Positions 24,304-54,310 of a stretch of 64,000 nt of DNA are shown here, piece after piece. The stretch's first letter is position 1. Each line of letters starts with the position of its first letter. The notes below the pieces were generated by a model. It made no database searches, had not been told where the DNA came from, and was given only the letters and a program-made list of their open reading frames with translations. Origin of the DNA: an uncultured Gammaproteobacteria bacterium (GTDB lineage: Bacteria > Patescibacteriota > Microgenomatia > Woykebacterales > RBG-16-39-9b); contig CAYIWY010000002.1 in assembly GCA_964367355.1 (NCBI GenBank), positions 71,296 through 135,295 on the forward strand, given 5' to 3'. Position numbers and translations under genes: made by a program.

Positions 24304-24800
24304 TTTTTCCTTCCTTAGAAAGCAATTTAGCGTTTAAAGTTGTATAATCGGGTCAATTGAAAGGAGAAAAGTCGTGCCGGATATACCAATGCAGAAACTC
24401 TCTGTACTACGCTTTCTCGTAATGATGATTGAAAAACGTTTGCTTGCGGACGGATTAATGTTCAATGGCCATCTGTGTGTGGTACTCACCCACCCGGAAA
24501 AGAAACTCACCTGGTTGGTAAACGACGATCCTTTCTGGCTCTCGATCAAAGATCTTGGTAATGATTACCAAATTACGGTTCTGACCATAAATCAAGATCC
24601 ACCAACTCAGAGTTATCAGGTTTCGCGAGAAAACTTGCAAACTTGGGTCGAAGCAGCAAAACCCAACCTGGACGATTGGGAAAAAATTACTCTCTGGATA
24701 CGTGAAGGTTCTAAGAGAGAAATGGGTCAGATCCCTGATCAAATTAAAGAGTGTCTTGCCTCTTAAAACCGTACACAATCTGTGTGCGGTTTTTCCTTTA
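24304..24800 (+). repeat. Copy 1 of a ~500 bp duplicated cassette (promoter + 130-aa gene + terminator)
   Basis: About 90% identical to 28816..29315 by eye. Includes the extended -10 (aaagTTGTATAAT) and SD (AAAGGAG) ahead of the GTG start. Confidence 0.8.
24374..24766 (+). CDS. Hypothetical 130-aa protein (duplicated family, copy 1)
   Basis: Near-identical paralog at 28887..29279 (LRFLVMM.EKRL..DGLMFNGHLCVVLTHPEKKLTWL...). Followed by a hairpin + U-run terminator. Confidence 0.6.
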   Translation: MPDIPMQKLSVLRFLVMMIEKRLLADGLMFNGHLCVVLTHPEKKLTWLVNDDPFWLSIKDLGNDYQITVLTINQDPPTQSYQVSRENLQTWVEAAKPNLDDWEKITLWIREGSKREMGQIPDQIKECLAS

Positions 24801-39712: not shown

Positions 39713-40243
39713 TTAGTAAGTCCTCAAAACTGCCGTCGAAGTAAGTGTTACGGCATTTTTTGGTCCGGTGATCGGATCTTTATACTCGACCGTTATCGAA
39801 ATCCGTATTGCATCTGCTCCACCAGTATTATTATTTATAAAAGTCAAGTTGGTGACTTTAACTTTTTCCGAGGTAAGTAGTTGGTCAGACTGGCCCTCAC
39901 GTTTAAGATAAAGATTTCCCTCGTCAACATAAAAATCAACAAAGGTCAGGTCTTCGTCATCAGGCAAATCCCGAACTGATGCCAAACTAAGTTGACCTGG
40001 ATTGGTCCCGAAAACACTTGTCGGGGTATAAATACTATCAGCATGCCGGATTTCCTGGGAAATTGTTTCTAGAGAGCGTCTGGCATTATCCAGCGATTCT
40101 CTGGTTCTTCTGGTTGTCTCGTTCACGCCTAGTAGTTGATTGACGAAAAGTAAAACTACAAGACTTATTACCGCAAGCAGAATTGCATAGATCAGTACCT
40201 CAATTAGTGTGAATCCTTTTTGCTCTAATTTATTAGATTTCAT
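39713..40243 (-). CDS. Prepilin-type minor pilin / pseudopilin
   Basis: KGFTLIEVLIYAILLAVISLVVL N-terminal methylation motif (G|FTLIE). Confidence 0.7.
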   Translation of the reverse strand: MKSNKLEQKGFTLIEVLIYAILLAVISLVVLLFVNQLLGVNETTRRTRESLDNARRSLETISQEIRHADSIYTPTSVFGTNPGQLSLASVRDLPDDEDLTFVDFYVDEGNLYLKREGQSDQLLTSEKVKVTNLTFINNNTGGADAIRISITVEYKDPITGPKNAVTLTSTAVLRTY

Positions 40244-40244
40244 T

Positions 40245-40730
40245 TTAATTATTTTTAATATTTGCAATATAGCTAGTTAGTTTTACTGATTTTAATCCCG
40301 AGTCTGTCCAACTAACTGTTGCAACAACTTTTTTGGTATTGGGATCATTTGTACCACCGCTAGATAGAATATTAAAACTGCCGTCACGACCAATATTTGA
40401 AAAAACTATAGTTGGAGTGTAGTAGCTGGAAGAATTGGAATTCGTCGTCGTCAAGGACCAGGTAGTACCAGTGAGTTTCGGATAATAAGTTGTTCCAGCG
40501 GTCAAACCTGCAATATTAGTCGTCCAATTGTCATCTTTTAGTTTTCTGACAACTTCCATCGCTTCTTCCCCTACCGCAACTGCTTCGGTATTTCTCTGGG
40601 CTTTCAAAGTCGCGCTGCGAGAAAAAAGAATAAAGCTAAGAAAGGCAGTAAAAGAAATAACAATGATTGTTGCAGTAATTACTATCTCGATTAAACCAAA
40701 TCCGTTTTGAGTTTTGTGTTTGTTTCTCAT
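40245..40730 (-). CDS. Prepilin-type minor pilin (PilV-like)
   Basis: NGFGLIEIVITATIIVISF N-terminal motif. Confidence 0.7.
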   Translation of the reverse strand: MRNKHKTQNGFGLIEIVITATIIVISFTAFLSFILFSRSATLKAQRNTEAVAVGEEAMEVVRKLKDDNWTTNIAGLTAGTTYYPKLTGTTWSLTTTNSNSSSYYTPTIVFSNIGRDGSFNILSSGGTNDPNTKKVVATVSWTDSGLKSVKLTSYIANIKNN

Positions 40731-41677
40731 TGGGTAGTCATCGTGCCTCCATACGCACCCACTGTTGCGACTCCGGCTGCGGAATAGGAAACTATTCCCT
40801 TGGAATCAATACTTATATCCAATGCTTTATCATTGAAACGTTTATCGCGAGTGATACTTAAATCTGTATCGAAAGCATCAAGTGAGTGGGTATGCACCCG
40901 AAGCGTTTGGTTACTACCATTAACATCTATTGTTCCTGACCAATCAAAAACCGATTTTGGACCATCAAAAAAGCCGACCATCGCAATATTTTGGACCGTA
41001 TCTGGATTTGGTGAATTGTGAAAAGTCAGTGTAAGTGTGACTGCAGTTTGAAGAGTCCAGCCTAAATCGAAATGCAGGTGACGGCTGTCGGTAACACGAG
41101 CAGTGGGAGAAGCAATTGTATCGGTAATGCTCACCTGCCCAGAGGATGCAATATTTATTGTTTTCGTCTTGCTTGTATCACTAGTTAGGCGTACAACTAC
41201 ACTACCGAATTGAGTTGTCGTCCCACGAATACGAGCAAAAACAACCTCACTCCCTCCTCCATTTAAACTTATCGAACTAATCTCGCTATCTCCTAAAAGA
41301 TATTCTTTATTGCCAGCTGCGCCATCTGTATAGCTAGTACCAGTAAAAAGAACATATTTCGTTGTTTCAAAATGTACACCGTAGGCACTTTGGCTCTTGG
41401 AGGCTAACGTCTGACTGCGAGCTAGCCTAAGTGTACTTAAAATGTTTTGTGAAGAAGATTCAAGAGAAATCTGTTTGTTCAATGTTGATAAACTAAAAAG
41501 AGTAACTACGGTGATGATCAGAATTATCCCAATCGCGATAAGTATTTCGATAAGCGTGAATCCTTTGGGTTCAACGCTTGCGCTGCGAAGCATCTTAAGC
41601 GTGAATCCGTTACTTTTTTTTATAACATCAAAGTTTTTAGGAAAAGAGAAAAGTTTTTTTCGACTTGTAGAAGACAT
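40727..41677 (-). CDS. Prepilin-type pseudopilin (FimT/GspH-like)
   Basis: KGFTLIEILIAIGIILIITVV motif. The true start may be the internal MLRSASVEPKGFTL (~41593). Confidence 0.65.
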   Translation of the reverse strand: MSSTSRKKLFSFPKNFDVIKKSNGFTLKMLRSASVEPKGFTLIEILIAIGIILIITVVTLFSLSTLNKQISLESSSQNILSTLRLARSQTLASKSQSAYGVHFETTKYVLFTGTSYTDGAAGNKEYLLGDSEISSISLNGGGSEVVFARIRGTTTQFGSVVVRLTSDTSKTKTINIASSGQVSITDTIASPTARVTDSRHLHFDLGWTLQTAVTLTLTFHNSPNPDTVQNIAMVGFFDGPKSVFDWSGTIDVNGSNQTLRVHTHSLDAFDTDLSITRDKRFNDKALDISIDSKGIVSYSAAGVATVGAYGGTMTTQ

Positions 41678-42988: not shown

Positions 42989-44404
42989 TTAACGAACTAT
43001 TTTCTTAAGTTTTGTTCCTCTTTCCTCATCGATAACTTCAAACCCCTTCTCTGCAATTTGTTTACGCAATTGGTCAGACTTTGCAAAATCTTTGTCCGCT
43101 CTGGCCTTTTCTCTTTGTTTAACCAAATCTTGAATTTCAGTTGGAATGGGTTGTTCGGCAATAGCATTTAACCCAAGGCCCAAAACTTCATCAAATTTCA
43201 GCAAACTTTGAAGTTTGGCAGAAGCAGGGTAATCCGACTTAACCAGATCCCACATTACTGCCAATGCTTTCGGGGTATCGAGGTCATTGTTAATTGCCTC
43301 AAGAAATTGCTGTTCAAACTCAGCGCATCCCACTTTGGCTTCACCATAACTTGAAACCTCGCGGTAAAGATTTGTCAACGCACTCTGCGCAGCTTGCAAA
43401 CTTTCCCAAGTAAAATTCATTTTACTGCGGTAGTGTGCAGTTAAACAAAGGTAACGAAAGGCTAAGGGATTTACACCTTTTTCGATCAGATCTTCTAGCG
43501 TCAAAACGCTGCTACCCGACTTGGCCATTTTATCGCCATCAAGTTGTAAGAATTCATTGTGCAGCCAAAATTTGGCCAGGATCTTATCAAAAGCTGCTTC
43601 GGATTGAGCAATTTCATTGCTGTGGTGGGTACCGATATGATCGACACCGCCAGTGTGAATATCGATTGGTTCCCCTAAACTTTCGTGAATGATTGCCGAA
43701 CACTCTAAGTGCCAACCTGGAAAACCCTCACCCCAAAGGCTGGGCCAGTGCATTTGGTGCTCCTTGAAACGTCCGGTGGTAAAGAACCAGAGAGCAAAAT
43801 CTTGCGGATGGTGTTTGTTTTCATCAGTGACAACTTCGGCTCGGGCGCCAACTTCTTTATCGACTAGTTTTTGGCCGGACAATTTTCCGTAGTCAGCAAC
43901 TTTAGTAACATCAAAATAAATTGCCTCTTCCGTCTGATAAGCAAAGCCTTTTTCGAGCAGAGTTTGTACCATGGCAACTTGTTCTTTGATCATCGACGTA
44001 GCTTTTATCAATTTTTTTGAAGGCAGGATATTGAGGGCTTGGGTGTGGCGCTTGAAAGCATCGGTATAAAATTCCGCCACTTGCCAAACTGTTTTATTCT
44101 CACGCGCCGCCCCTTTTTCGAGTTTGTCTTCGCCCTCGTCGGCGTCACTGGCCAGATGACCAACGTCAGTAATGTTCATCACGTGATTAACGTCAAGCGA
44201 GTTGAATTCTAAAGTCCGCCGCAAAATGTCATTGAAAACGCTATTGCGTAAATTGCCAATGTGAGCGTAGTGATAGACCGTCGGCCCACAGGTGTAAAGC
44301 TTTACCACGTTTCCTTCGAGGGGTAAGAACTTTTCTTTTTTGCGAGAAAGCGTGTTGGTTAAAAAAATATCTGCCATTTGACTCATTATAGTATTATATA
44401 TCAA
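42989..44404 (-). CDS. cysS: Cysteinyl-tRNA synthetase
   Basis: HIGN (HYAHIGN), KMAKS (KMSKS variant), class-I Rossmann fold and anticodon-binding domain. 471 aa. Confidence 0.95.
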   Translation of the reverse strand: MIYNTIMSQMADIFLTNTLSRKKEKFLPLEGNVVKLYTCGPTVYHYAHIGNLRNSVFNDILRRTLEFNSLDVNHVMNITDVGHLASDADEGEDKLEKGAARENKTVWQVAEFYTDAFKRHTQALNILPSKKLIKATSMIKEQVAMVQTLLEKGFAYQTEEAIYFDVTKVADYGKLSGQKLVDKEVGARAEVVTDENKHHPQDFALWFFTTGRFKEHQMHWPSLWGEGFPGWHLECSAIIHESLGEPIDIHTGGVDHIGTHHSNEIAQSEAAFDKILAKFWLHNEFLQLDGDKMAKSGSSVLTLEDLIEKGVNPLAFRYLCLTAHYRSKMNFTWESLQAAQSALTNLYREVSSYGEAKVGCAEFEQQFLEAINNDLDTPKALAVMWDLVKSDYPASAKLQSLLKFDEVLGLGLNAIAEQPIPTEIQDLVKQREKARADKDFAKSDQLRKQIAEKGFEVIDEERGTKLKKIVR

Positions 44405-44436
44405 CCATTGGGTATGAAGGTCGGAAAAAGGAGGTT

Positions 44437-44652
44437 TTGATGACCGGGCCCAAAGCTAGAAGCGTAACAGAAGTTGGAAGAGGCGACTACATCAAAGTTG
44501 GTGATCAGTGGAAGAAAATTGTTTCCAACTCCGCCGCTGGTGCACAAAGCACACCAAGGAACTGGGTCGTTCGGACAGAGGGTGGTGGCGAGTACAGCAT
44601 GTGGAGTATTAACGCTTACGCAAAGGCAGACGATTTGAATCCTAAGCCTTAG
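44437..44652 (+). CDS. Hypothetical small protein (71 aa, GC-richer)
   Basis: SD AAAAGGAGGttttgATG. Own intrinsic terminator at 44669..44708. Confidence 0.5.
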   Translation: MMTGPKARSVTEVGRGDYIKVGDQWKKIVSNSAAGAQSTPRNWVVRTEGGGEYSMWSINAYAKADDLNPKP

Positions 44653-44668
44653 AGCTAAACCGGCCAAT

Positions 44669-44708
44669 GAGCGAGGTATGACATAATTGTCGCCTCGCTT
44701 TTCTTTTT
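44669..44708 (+). terminator. Rho-independent terminator
   Basis: agcgagg-N16-cctcgct + ttttctttttcc. Confidence 0.6.
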
Positions 44709-44758
44709 CCAAATTTGGCTATAGGGTGTATAATTTATTTGAGTGAAAGGAGATAACG

Positions 44759-45028
44759 GTGATCAGAGTGATCTTCGTAACCTTAATGGTAAAAGGACTA
44801 GTACTAGGTGTTTTGTGGGGAGCTTTCGGCCTAGGACAAATCCTGGAACCAGGTTTCCTCGGTAGCGCGGGTAACCCCATAGGAGACAGGCTTCTCGGTA
44901 TATTAGACCTTTTCGTAGGAGCAATATTAGCTGTAATGTGCTTCCTGTGTCTATTTGTATTGGATGGTGGGGCTTGGTATAAGAAAAACTGGCACCAATA
45001 TCAAAAGGAAGGAGATCCACATGTCTGA
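44759..45028 (+). CDS. Small membrane protein (89 aa, 2-3 TM)
   Basis: SD GAAAGGAG + GTG start. Stop overlaps the next gene's ATG (translational coupling). Confidence 0.45.
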   Translation: MIRVIFVTLMVKGLVLGVLWGAFGLGQILEPGFLGSAGNPIGDRLLGILDLFVGAILAVMCFLCLFVLDGGAWYKKNWHQYQKEGDPHV

Positions 45029-45380
45029 CGATCGAAAGTTCTTTGTTTTCATTGGGGGTAGAGACTACCATCCAGATAGTCGTCATTTCAGTCCCGTCCT
45101 AGGACAACCCTACATCGTCGTAACACTCCAGGCTACCTCCAAAGGGTGGTACGCAGAAGGAGAGGTGCGGTCCGACGTTCCGAATACTGAGATTCGTCCT
45201 CACGTAATATCGTCATCGACAACTCATTTGGAAGATGATCTCAGAGGGTTTCTTGGCAACAAGGCAAGGGCAGAAGATATCGGACTCATGACTAGAGCGG
45301 TCTACTCAGTGCTGGTTAACCTCGTTATCGATTCTGCCAAGAAAACGCAAGACCCAGAAGTTACTGCAGCAGCCCATTAA
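45020..45380 (+). CDS. Hypothetical protein (119 aa)
   Basis: MSDDRKFFVFIGGRDYHPDS... with SD AAGGAAGGAGatccacATG. Followed by the terminator at 45390..45425. Confidence 0.5.
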
Positions 45381-45389
45381 GCAGCTCAA

Positions 45390-45425
45390 AAGCGAGGATT
45401 AAAACCCCTCGCTTTACTTTTTTTA
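45390..45425 (+). terminator. Rho-independent terminator (possibly bidirectional with the DUF1003 gene)
   Basis: agcgagg-attaaaacc-cctcgct + ttacttttttta. Confidence 0.6.
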
Positions 45426-45845
45426 TTTGGAAACTTTTGGAGGTTCTTGACCTGGGAAGTTAGATTCAATTTTTTCAATCAGACGGCGAACTTCAGATAA
45501 ATCTTCGGACAAATCGGTAAATTCTTCTTTGATGTCCTCAATGTCTTCTTCAATTTCTTCTTGCTCGGCCTCATCTTCTTTATCTCTTTGTTCAGCAATT
45601 TCTGCTTGGCGGTTTTGGTTAACCATAATGAAAGTTGCCAGAAAAATTGCTTCGAGTGAAACGATCATTGTGAGAAGACCAAAAGGAAAGGAATCCCCGA
45701 TTTTGCGCGCAAACAGCACCCACAAGACAAACCAAATAATGTGTATGTAAACAAAGGCCATACTCCCAGCAAAACGGGTTATTTTATCAGCGATTTTTGT
45801 TTCACTTTCATGAAATTTTTTATTTTTGAATCCTAGAAAAAACAT
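45423..45845 (-). CDS. DUF1003-family membrane protein
   Basis: KIADKITRFAGSMAFVYIHIIWFVLWVL...FPFGLLTMIVSLEAIFLATFIMVNQNRQ followed by an acidic coiled-coil tail. Confidence 0.65.
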   Translation of the reverse strand: MFFLGFKNKKFHESETKIADKITRFAGSMAFVYIHIIWFVLWVLFARKIGDSFPFGLLTMIVSLEAIFLATFIMVNQNRQAEIAEQRDKEDEAEQEEIEEDIEDIKEEFTDLSEDLSEVRRLIEKIESNFPGQEPPKVSK

Positions 45846-46716
45846 CGATCAAAGAGCGTTATTAAACAGTGTAAACATAATTCAAATTGGTTGGTAGTTA
45901 ATAAGTTAGGGGTTGGTAGCAGTGGCTTTATCGTCGTCTCTGAAGCTAATTTTACTAAATTTGAGATTAAATTGCAACTAGTTTCAAGAGGAAGGCGGGG
46001 GTAGAGTGCTTTGCTGTAAACGGCGGGGTACAGCAAATCATTTTCTACCCCCATTTTGTATCACCGACAAAGTTCGCCTCCGTAATCGTGTCGTGTGCGG
46101 GGACCCTTACCTCGATCACAATAAACTTACTTGTCGGTAGACACCAAAGGTTGTTTTGGGGAGTGGTCAGAAGATTTTTAGTCCTGGCGGGGTAGGTTTT
46201 CTTAAAGGTGCTGGAGGCAACCTTCTTTGCATCCCCTGCTAGCCACTCCCCAATTCTGATTCTCTATTGCAACTCTCCTCTCTTAGAGCTAGCGTGAATC
46301 GTGTTTTCACTTTTCACTAGCTTGCTAGCTTAAAAGTACTCTTATGTCAATAAAAAATCAAGAAGAAAATATTTTAAAAAGAAGCGGGGCATGCAAGTGA
46401 GAGTTTCACAAACATGCCCCAAAGCTAGACTCATACCTCCTTCCCTTCTACCGTAACGTATTCAAAGTTGGGACTGACTGGTTTTTGTATTTCCCCCGCC
46501 AAAGTTCGATACGCACCCCGGGTTTCCACCAAAGAGCTGAAACCATCTCGCCCAACAACCGTCTCGAATACGCCAATACCTACTCGGCTAGTCGGTGGCA
46601 GCAGATATACATATCTATATACTCTTTTTTAATTGAAGTTTCAAGCAAACAAGGAAGGGGCTTACAATGTACACCTCCGAGGTGTACATGTACTTTTGTG
46701 AATTAAGAAGGTTTTT

Positions 46717-50595: not shown

Positions 50596-50874
50596 CTACA
50601 ATTCCTTCTGCTTCGCCCACTCCTTAAATTCAGTAAACCAACCACTGATCCAGATTGATACGATAATGGTTACCAAGGTGTCCACAATAACCAAACCGTA
50701 CCAAGTTGCATCTGGTACACGATCGAAACCTAGGTTATTTAGGCCCTTTAACGATCCCAACCAAAAGAGCCAAAACCAGATAAACAGCCAGGCGAGATAC
50801 CCAGCCATTGCGGTGATAAAACCCCAAAGCGTGACCTTCTGCCCAGTTGCAGCAATAATGGCTTTTGAATCCAC
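50596..50874 (-). CDS. Small Trp-rich membrane protein (92 aa)
   Basis: Complete ORF with three hydrophobic helices. Confidence 0.4.
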   Translation of the reverse strand: MDSKAIIAATGQKVTLWGFITAMAGYLAWLFIWFWLFWLGSLKGLNNLGFDRVPDATWYGLVIVDTLVTIIVSIWISGWFTEFKEWAKQKEL

Positions 50875-53419: not shown

Positions 53420-53929
53420 TTATCTCCCCGTTAAAAAGGCACCCGGCATAATTTCCTTAAGCAGATCCTCTCCGCGCTCGGTCAACAAGCGGAAGAAATT
53501 TGGATCTACCTGGTAGAGTGCTATCAGCAAGCACTCCCGACAGGCGGCTTGGGGAAAACCTAGTCCTTGCCATACTCCAAATTTCGGTCCAGAGTGGTGT
53601 TTGTCGTGAAAGATGAGCACCCAATCAAGAGCCTCTGGATCGTGCCGTAGCATAACACACAACAAGCACTTCGGGCAGAAGGTTACCTCTTCTTCGCTGT
53701 CGAATTCGATTGAGACAGTCTTGCACTTTCCATCGTGCCAAGTCTCTTTGAGCGTCCATTCAAATTCCTCGGCATACTCATCTTTGATGAGCTCCCGAAG
53801 ACAGGTCCGGCAAGCCCGAACTTTGTCATCGAGAAAAATGCACTCGTTAGGGCTCACTCCGTTACAGTGCTGTGCAATTTGTAAAGTGCACCAATCCGAA
53901 CCTACCGAAATCTCTGTCGTCTCTCCCAT
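53420..53929 (-). CDS. Cys-rich hypothetical protein (169 aa), paralog of 53972..54310
   Basis: ISVGSDWCTLQIAQHCNG...RACRTCLRELIKDEY...FCPKCLLC is shared with the neighbour (ISVGNDWCSLRLHKDCRG...RICRPCLYELSKQEF). GC-richer. Confidence 0.5.
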   Translation of the reverse strand: MGETTEISVGSDWCTLQIAQHCNGVSPNECIFLDDKVRACRTCLRELIKDEYAEEFEWTLKETWHDGKCKTVSIEFDSEEEVTFCPKCLLCVMLRHDPEALDWVLIFHDKHHSGPKFGVWQGLGFPQAACRECLLIALYQVDPNFFRLLTERGEDLLKEIMPGAFLTGR

Positions 53930-53971: not shown

Positions 53972-54310
53972 TTACTCTGCGGATTCTCTTTCTACCTGCC
54001 GTCGCGTCATGTAGATGGCATCAACCCTGGTTAAGCCACCACACTTGAAGCATTGCAAAGAGTTTCCGTCGCAATTCCCTGTTCGGTGGCAAGGGCAGTT
54101 GCATTCTCCACTCATCCCGTAATCTTCGGGAAACTCTTGCTTGCTTAATTCGTACAAACAAGGTCGGCAGATCCGAATCCTCTCAGCAAGAAGAAGACAG
54201 AGGCTTGAGAGACTGAACCTTCCCCGACAATCTTTATGGAGCCGTAAACTGCACCAATCGTTACCCACTGAGATCCTCATCGTCTCTTCCATGCGCTCCT
54301 TTCCGGCCAA
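53972..54310 (-). CDS. Cys-rich hypothetical protein (112 aa)
   Basis: See 53420..53929. Additional CNCPCHRTGNCDGNSLQCFKCGG cluster. Confidence 0.5.
   Translation of the reverse strand: MAGKERMEETMRISVGNDWCSLRLHKDCRGRFSLSSLCLLLAERIRICRPCLYELSKQEFPEDYGMSGECNCPCHRTGNCDGNSLQCFKCGGLTRVDAIYMTRRQVERESAE

Follow-up and report, generated by a model that had tools for sequence, protein, structure and literature searches.

A probably composite locus in a groundwater candidate phyla radiation genome: one old resident gene and two young orphans between cysS and a DUF1003 gene

In the window analysed here, a stretch of 64,000 nucleotides (64 kb) from contig CAYIWY010000002.1, three small plus-strand open reading frames (ORFs), g1, g2 and g3, occupy the slot between two conserved minus-strand genes, cysS and a gene encoding a DUF1003 membrane protein (Table 1). 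With somewhat better than even confidence, we propose that this locus is composite: g3 would be an old, vertically inherited gene, and g1 and g2 young orphans in a turnover slot whose junctions have been recycled. An earlier note on this DNA had described the three genes as one acquired accessory cassette. That description suits g1 and g2, which are accessory and free of homologues; g3, by contrast, is syntenic in the relatives L001/L002, L008, L012 and L016 (contig handles with the prefix L are used throughout). Orthologues at the same locus in relatives, which the note had taken to speak for a core rather than an accessory gene, are what we found for g3.

The g3 family consists of nine sequences, six close and three distant. 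A search of 5.8 billion protein clusters returned five relatives at 65–70% identity, and a profile search against 1.84 billion representatives yielded a further three at 23–32% identity (E 1e-5 to 6e-4). The family proteins are 109–121 amino acids (aa) long; they match the family profile significantly and share the motif G-x-V-R-x-D ... I-x-P-D/H-V, together with the invariant residues G12, P25, G28, P30, L36, G47, V49, R50, D52, I58, P60 and L101. On the contigs that are long enough (L001/L002, L008, L012 and L016), the orthologues sit in the cysS/DUF1003 slot in the same orientation. The order in L001/L002 is cysS (-), a 72-aa ORF, g3 (+), DUF1003 (-), YqeY, AAA_18 and RecR, and the gene arrangement in L008 and L012 is consistent with it. 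In L016 a distant homologue, P0011, stands alone between cysS and DUF1003, which are followed by YqeY, AAA_18, RecR, YbaB and DnaX; its identity to g3 is 32% when taken from the multiple alignment, and tblastn gives 35% over 94 residues (E 9e-8). A further strain, L009–L011, has g3 as well; its contigs do not extend to the flanks. Taken together, these comparisons point to g3 as an old, vertically inherited and clade-restricted gene in a subgroup of groundwater Saccharimonadia, a lineage of the candidate phyla radiation (CPR).

Among close relatives, the pairwise ratio of nonsynonymous to synonymous substitution rates (dN/dS) of g3 is 0.2–0.4. By region it is 0.13 in the motif GEVRxD..EIxPDV versus 0.74 in the tip of the beta2–beta3 hairpin. 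Positive selection on the tip was considered and set aside, as a dN/dS of 0.74 fits relaxed constraint and does not demonstrate positive selection; the pattern fits purifying selection on an ordinary protein in which a single loop is loosely constrained. Composition had been read in the earlier note as a sign of acquisition, and the g1–g3 region is indeed GC-rich (0.467 versus 0.405 for the whole window, a value that 1.3% of equal-sized windows reach; z for g1 alone, 2.6). However, every lineage compared has a g3 orthologue richer in GC than its flanks (0.474 versus 0.409 in L001 and 0.502 versus 0.423 in L016), and composition is therefore no sign of recent transfer.

The product of g3 is predicted to be a cytoplasmic alpha/beta protein. 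An AlphaFold (AF2) model built from the nine-sequence alignment (predicted local distance difference test score, pLDDT, 73; predicted template modelling score, pTM, 0.67) has four strands and two helices, in the order strand 6–11, a long conserved loop, strands 31–38, 43–50 and 62–65, and helices 70–81 and 84–118. Foldseek comparison of this model with the PDB and BFVD returned nothing significant (best E about 0.1, 0.15 for the PDB; TM-score below 0.3); the weak matches included an RNase H-like fold, which we judged not meaningful. The g3 sequence profile had no match among PDB sequences, scans of GTDB representatives, JGI metagenomes and IMG/VR found nothing, and there were no matches in plasmids or phages.

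The two other genes have a very different distribution. In the same 5.8 billion (5.8e9) protein clusters, g1 and g2 each matched only themselves, and no relatives of either were found in phages, plasmids or IMG/VR. The g1–g3 proteins recur unchanged on a contig of 214 kb recovered from Hainich groundwater (0.1-µm filter fraction), as well as on several identical contigs of other runs. CPR genomics of that groundwater project is treated in PMC8672522. The product of g1 is predicted to be soluble and beta-rich; its single-sequence AF2 model has a pLDDT of 58 and no significant fold matches. Likeness to the KOW/SH3-like barrel of EF-P/eIF5A was uninformative (E >0.5), and descent from g3 by tandem duplication was rejected (hhalign probability 0.1%, nothing by BLASTP). 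Nor does g1 resemble the ORFs of about 70 aa in L001 or L012, the 24% identity in a MAFFT alignment being an alignment artefact. In g2, hydropathy places hydrophobic segments at residues 1–19 and 48–66, followed by a charged C-terminal tail (DGGAWYKKNWHQYQKEGDPHV). This arrangement, two transmembrane (TM) helices ahead of a charged tail in a small protein, is the topology of class II holins or small membrane toxins. Homology of g2 to the 2-TM ORFs of relatives described below (d1, d2 and d75) was not established (BLASTP E 0.017; shuffle test p 0.06–0.08). On this evidence, g1 and g2 appear to be young, lineage-specific accessory genes of this species or strain only.

Comparison of the slot across relatives reveals a changing set of small ORFs around g3. 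Against L001, blastn similarity ends at the cysS start (44378) and returns at 45001, 20 nucleotides (nt) before the g3 ATG; the ORF upstream of g3 in L001/L002, 72 aa long, is unrelated. Upstream of g3, L012 has a Cys-rich 71-aa ORF and L008 has nothing, and both carry the same two 68-aa 2-TM ORFs, d1 and d2, downstream. The downstream ORF is a 75-aa 2-TM protein (d75) in L013/L014 and a basic 70-aa protein in L015. In L016 g3 is alone in the slot. Without g3, the slot of L017 is an empty spacer of 344 nt, and that of L018 holds a Cys-rich 73-aa ORF instead. The 71–73-aa Cys-rich protein (YC(R/H)CG...C; tblastn E 3e-8) is thus encoded beside g3 in L012 (194–409, +) and alone in L018 (1454–1675, -); its sole Pfam match, zinc-finger-like, is weak and below threshold. 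None of the small slot proteins of relatives matched a known family, and homology among them is demonstrable only for d1 and d2 between L008 and L012 and for the Cys-rich ORFs of L012 and L018. Overall, 2-TM ORFs adjoin g3 in four of eight lineages. In L016, the cysS product (708–2879, -) is 723 aa long and combines Glycos_transf_2 with tRNA-synt_1e, an unusual fusion or possibly a merge by the gene caller.

The junctions of the slot carry traces of how it may have been assembled. Two hairpins, T1 after g1 and T2 between g3 and the DUF1003 gene, both fit an intrinsic (Rho-independent) terminator, with a GC-rich hairpin directly before a U-run and equivalents in L001, L008 and L012; T2 can fold on the minus strand too. 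Their common stem, GCGAGG..CCTCGC, occurs at these two sites only within the 64 kb, compared with 0.04 expected; the two near-identical terminators described in the earlier note are borne out. A simple consensus terminator scan picked up neither of them, their loops probably being above its 8-nt limit. In T2, the 3′ arm with its T-run (CCTCGCTT.A.CTTTTT; CCTCGCTTTACTTTTT) can be recognised in L008, L012 and even the distant L016, which points to T2 as the ancestral terminator and to T1 as its duplicate, a paralogous copy.

Behind T1 lies a promoter-like module, P2, and a Shine–Dalgarno (SD) site. The T1 3′ arm and T-run, P2 and the GAAAGGAG SD line up with a terminator–promoter–SD module of L012 and L008, which in those relatives follows g3 and precedes the d1–d2 membrane genes. 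In our alignment A7 this module is common to the window, L009, L012 and L008; by blastn, window 44693–44752 matches L012 815–873. The placing of SD and start is conserved as well between g2 and d1 of L008 and L012. At its other end, g2 runs into older sequence: its last approximately 28 nt are the ancestral g3 leader and SD (aaaaggaaggagatccacATG, identical in L001), and its stop lies 8 nt inside g3. The two genes are adjacent, with no terminator between them, and the earlier note had taken their overlap as a sign of translational coupling. The overlap exists, but it measures 8 nt (ATGTCTGA), unlike the 4-nt ATGA type, because g2 reads through the old g3 leader to the first out-of-frame stop. 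It is therefore explicable without evolved coupling; physical coupling is nonetheless expected.

Recombination in this locus can be followed in L009–L011, a co-occurring strain whose contigs come from different wells of the Hainich aquifer. Its DNA is 100% identical to the window from the 3′ arm of T1 (44691) through g2 to codon 11 of g3; upstream of that arm it differs from the 3′ end of g1. Within g3, the allele P0004 (365–724 in L009; also in L010 and L011), compared with window 45021–45380 and L001 8001–8363, is a three-way mosaic: codons 26–45 are unlike any sampled lineage, codons 51–85 are 98–100% identical to the L001 lineage and codons 86–119 are again identical to the window. Such a pattern directly documents homologous recombination among related populations, the breakpoints lying at the terminator and within g3.

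We therefore arrive at the following model. The old resident g3 would have been fixed between cysS and DUF1003, ending at the ancestral hairpin T2, and g1 and g2 would later have settled between cysS and the ancestral leader of g3. T1 would be the duplicated g3 terminator fused to the promoter–SD module that contains P2. Gene content would turn over by homologous recombination at common terminator–promoter signals and inside g3. As it stands, the locus would comprise two transcription units, one for g1 that stops at T1 and a g2–g3 unit running from P2 to T2, with translation of g3 starting both at its own SD and through coupling to g2.

Table 1. Coordinates of the genes and signals of the slot, numbered from the first letter of the window
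Feature	Position	Strand	Remarks
cysS (cysteinyl-tRNA synthetase)	42989..44377	-	conserved left anchor; Pfam tRNA-synt_1e on the called gene
SD of g1, AAGGAGG	44428..44434	+	5 nt before ATG 44440
g1	44440..44652	+	70 aa, no TM segment, GC 0.50; 71 aa if TTG 44437 is taken as start
Terminator T1 (hairpin)	44669..44700	+	-18.6 kcal/mol, z -3.7; followed by TTTTCTTTTTCC; T-run 44701-44712
Promoter-like module P2, TTTCCA-17-TATAAT	44706..44734	+	10/12 matches in the promoter scan; upstream of g2
SD of g2, AAAGGAG	44746..44752	+	6 nt before GTG 44759; GAAAGGAG core kept before d1 in L008 and L012
g2	44759..45028	+	89 aa, GTG start, two TM segments
SD of g3, AAGGAG	45009..45014	+	6 nt before ATG; within the leader aaaaggaaggagatccacATG
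g3	45021..45380	+	119 aa, ATG start, no TM segment
Variable beta2–beta3 hairpin tip of g3	45123..45158	+	codons 35–46; nucleotide identity down to 0.43–0.55 in several pairs
Terminator T2 (hairpin)	45389..45415	+	-13.1 kcal/mol, z -2.5; followed by ACTTTTTTTATT; between g3 and DUF1003
DUF1003 membrane protein	45423..45845	-	conserved right anchor, convergent to g3; Pfam PF06210, E 3.7e-22; synteny

Most of the basic layout given in the earlier note holds. The three small ORFs divergent from cysS are present, with g1 better read as 70 aa from ATG 44440, the most likely start, than as 71 aa from the TTG before it. The soluble/membrane/soluble order is confirmed by hydropathy, which gives TM segments in g2 only, and the strong SD sites claimed for all three genes (AAGGAGG, AAAGGAG and AAGGAG) are found 5–6 nt before their starts. 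For cysS, gene callers place the start at ATG 44377 and not at TTG 44404, and the resulting N-terminus, MADIFLTN, is kept in L008, L017 and L018.

As to what the genes do, we weighed four alternatives whose estimates sum to one. The leading role, which we put a little short of even, is a housekeeping-like, lineage-specific function for g3, with independent accessory small proteins as its neighbours. That g3 works at the membrane with small 2-TM hairpin partners (g2 here, d75 or d1/d2 elsewhere) is a minority expectation, the lack of any function in g1 and/or g2 a somewhat smaller one, and a toxin–immunity or defence pair an improbable one.

Several points weigh against a composite locus. The two supposed young genes are invariant: L003–L006 are 100% identical, and the DNA of g2 is identical in L009–L011 as well. 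The codon score of g2 is weak, and no consensus promoter for g1 was found in the 62-nt spacer common to g1 and cysS. L017 and L018, the two nearest GTDB representatives in which the cysS/DUF1003 synteny is kept, are without g3, which is therefore clade-restricted and not universal, and in L007 g3 adjoins rpiB downstream, a different context. Small TM ORFs abound in this genome, and chance alone could have put 2-TM ORFs beside g3. Finally, only a few short metagenomic contigs underlie what we infer about how, and in which direction, the locus was rearranged.

Part of this evidence bears on the rival in which g3 is the sole functional gene and g1 and/or g2 are proto-genes or rearrangement remnants behind recycled signals, an explanation that we regard as unlikely. 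It would account for the absence of homologues of g1 and g2, for a g2 end set by the first out-of-frame stop within g3 and for the missing g1 promoter, and the invariance of both genes leaves no variation from which selection could be measured. The coding signals speak largely the other way. When all six frames of each gene were given codon log-odds scores, with the long genes as training set, the annotated frame was the sole positive one for each of g1, g2 and g3. The score of g1 (0.24) equals the mean of the long genes, as in a typical native gene, and g3 scored 0.17; the g2 score of 0.04–0.09, which favours this rival, lies at the low end of the range for other small membrane ORFs of the genome (0.05–0.25). 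In addition, all three genes have well-spaced strong SD sites, a strict SD core preceding only 1.7% of the start-like codons in the window by chance. The two clean TM helices of g2 are non-random, its SD and start are placed as in d1 of L008 and L012, and the genome has many comparable small SD-led ORFs.

The earlier note had likened the genes to toxin–immunity or abortive-infection (Abi) modules. In such an acquired module, g2 would be a membrane effector and g3 and/or g1 a soluble regulator or immunity factor. The layout, the tight 8-nt overlap, the elevated GC, the holin-like topology of g2, the unrelated small 2-TM ORFs beside g3-family genes in half of the eight lineages and the variable surface hairpin and intragenic recombination of g3 can all be cited for this reading. 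Nevertheless, we hold it to be doubtful. Pfam, NCBIfam, PADLOC and PHROGs returned only sub-threshold noise for g1–g3 and the nine g3 family members, in keeping with the note's own remark that no component is recognisable by sequence; Foldseek, which the note had proposed as a check, found no toxin or antitoxin fold for g3 or g1; and no relatives were detected in phages, plasmids or IMG/VR. Because family, fold and mobile-element searches were empty, the reading rests on layout only, and within that layout the overlap is accounted for by the read-through of the ancestral g3 leader by g2. PADLOC found zero defence families, and the locus lies in no defence island, its neighbours (cysS, a TrpR-like gene, DUF1003, YqeY, RecR, YbaB and DnaX) being housekeeping genes. 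The patchy, mobile distribution typical of toxin–antitoxin (TA) and Abi modules is not that of g3, which is syntenic over deep divergence and lacks a membrane partner in L001 and L016.

Least probable is a prophage or mobile-element remnant made of moron-like units with their own promoter and terminator: g1 is self-contained (SD, ORF, intrinsic terminator and deviant GC) and g2 has weak PHROG matches (phrog_22651, E 0.003; a ‘membrane protein’ moron family, E 0.02), but TM proteins reach such E-values by chance, the neighbourhood showed neither an integrase nor attachment-site repeats, tRNA or phage genes, there are no relatives among INPHARED phages, IMG/VR or plasmids, and the flanking housekeeping genes are syntenic in all relatives.

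Returning to the composite locus, one extension of it is a long shot in our estimation. The cysS–DUF1003 slot might be an integrase-free shuffling site with a reusable terminator–promoter–SD junction module, at which Saccharimonadia exchange small membrane and soluble proteins through homologous recombination. In it g3 might serve as a conserved cytoplasmic adaptor with a variable hairpin that docks onto the 2-TM partner of the moment, the two perhaps forming a rapidly diversifying, hitherto undescribed kind of envelope or epibiont host-interaction system.

The slot's surroundings include several further features. A TATAAT lies at 44390–44385 (-), 7 nt before the cysS ATG, and cysS has no SD; the element recurs 7–8 nt upstream of the cysS ATG in the window, L001 (7630–7660), L012 (100–125) and L008 (205–230). 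We consider cysS probably leaderless on these grounds. With the TATAAT so near the ATG, only 62 nt are left for a divergent g1 promoter. On the other side, a promoter-like site of the DUF1003 gene (TTGCAA-17-TAAAAT, 45949–45977, -) implies a 5′ untranslated region of about 100 nt, and the motif around it (..CAAATTTAGTAAAATTAGCTTCA..) is the sole part of that gap also common to L008, L016 and L018. By its DUF1003 protein, the nearest GTDB representative is a Candidatus Saccharimonadales metagenome-assembled genome, which places the organism among the Saccharimonadia of the CPR.

Between DUF1003 and YqeY, positions 45846–46716 are free of ORFs and 95.3% identical to L001, compared with 72–93% for the flanking genes. 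The minimum free energy of this stretch deviates from shuffled sequences with z -6.9 on the minus strand and -3.6 on the plus strand. RNAalifold, applied to two distinct sequences, predicted 209 pairs, in which 13 one-sided and 2 double substitutions all keep pairing (15/15). The stretch has long GC-rich hairpins and a recurring GGCGGGG motif. It gave no real Rfam match and contains no tRNA or transfer-messenger RNA, and a metagenome pattern scan retrieved the same organism only. Its first approximately 130 nt hold the conserved DUF1003 promoter; the remaining approximately 740 nt, mainly 45980–46660 on the minus strand, are a candidate large structured non-coding RNA. This stretch may be more interesting than the g1–g3 cassette.

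Small genes of this kind are not peculiar to the slot. Many more small, SD-led ORFs with a higher GC content at third codon positions (GC3) occur in the window, and the features of the cassette are not unique. By eye, ORFs of 39–107 aa look hydrophobic at 29413–29736 (-), 34264–34413 (-), 35260–35379 (+) and 50596–50874 (-), as do two that overlap by 17 nt at 63431–63700 (+) and 63684–63974 (+); their GC3 is 0.38–0.53, mostly above the long-gene mean of 0.36. Because so many ORFs of the window are likewise small, SD-led and GC3-richer, g1–g3 can be counted among a class of such unannotated genes that extends across the genome. Elsewhere in the window there is a paralogous SD-led pair of 130 aa (24374–24766, +; 28887–29279, +) whose products start with VP(D/E)(I/T)P.QKLS(V/I)LRFLVMM, and a Cys-rich paralogous SD-led pair (53420–53929, -; 53972–54292, -) starting with ..ISVG(S/N)DWC(T/S)L. 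Three consecutive genes at 39713–41677 (-), upstream of a hydrolase gene and the TrpR-like gene, include some whose products, according to the precomputed annotation, faintly match N_methyl (type IV pilin-like prepilin).

If the proposed history is right, the locus gives a base-pair view of a streamlined CPR genome gaining and losing tiny orphan genes without mobile-element machinery, through a reused, duplicated terminator–promoter junction and recombination between co-occurring populations. The g3 family is small, conserved, structurally unmatched and restricted to a clade of groundwater Saccharimonadia, and as such a candidate for biology peculiar to that lineage. The locus is a documented example of turnover and reveals no new defence or toxin system.

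Among known systems, phage ‘morons’, reportedly described in Juhala et al. 2000, are autonomous promoter–gene–terminator units inserted between conserved genes. As in morons, g1 is small, deviates in GC, has its own intrinsic terminator and is set between conserved genes, the P2–g2 unit would have its own promoter, and content varies among close relatives while the flanks remain syntenic. Unlike morons, the genes stand in a CPR chromosomal housekeeping neighbourhood, no phage homologues were found and no promoter was found for g1; phage genes and tRNAs are absent nearby, where no attachment sites were identified either. Type II TA and small membrane-toxin modules resemble the locus in that a 2-TM protein with a charged tail (g2) and a soluble protein (g3) are encoded by small, overlapping and presumably co-transcribed genes. 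They differ from it in that no toxin family or fold (RelE, MazF, VapC, HicA and others) and no antitoxin DNA-binding domain (RHH, HTH or AbrB) was found, and in that g3 is kept in its slot down to 32–35% identity, stands alone in some relatives and has no mobile distribution. Class II holins share the topology of g2, whose neighbours, by contrast, are g1, g3 and housekeeping genes, with no endolysin, phage context or phage relatives.

Integron cassette arrays offer another parallel, with small ORFs each followed by an inverted repeat of common sequence and a content that varies between strains. Here, however, the repeats are GC hairpins with T-runs, that is, terminators, and one cassette would have its own promoter. 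The attC cores RYYYAAC and GTTRRRY are absent from both strands of 44400–45459, and no integrase was found within about 6 kb on either side in the precomputed Pfam annotation, the rest of the window not having been scanned protein by protein. Morons, integron cassettes and TA modules each have some of the anatomy of the locus, and each depart from it in one or more of the defining features tested.

The closest likeness is to the ORFan slots of streamlined and CPR genomes, in which short genes without homologues outside the species or genus are replaced by unrelated ones at the same syntenic position. The present case departs from them in that the junctions can be traced, to a duplicated terminator and a reused promoter–SD module, and in that a recombination mosaic is visible. 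The locus is best described as a variable slot that lies between conserved core genes and is filled with small orphan genes, a known phenomenon whose junctions are, in this instance, unusually traceable.

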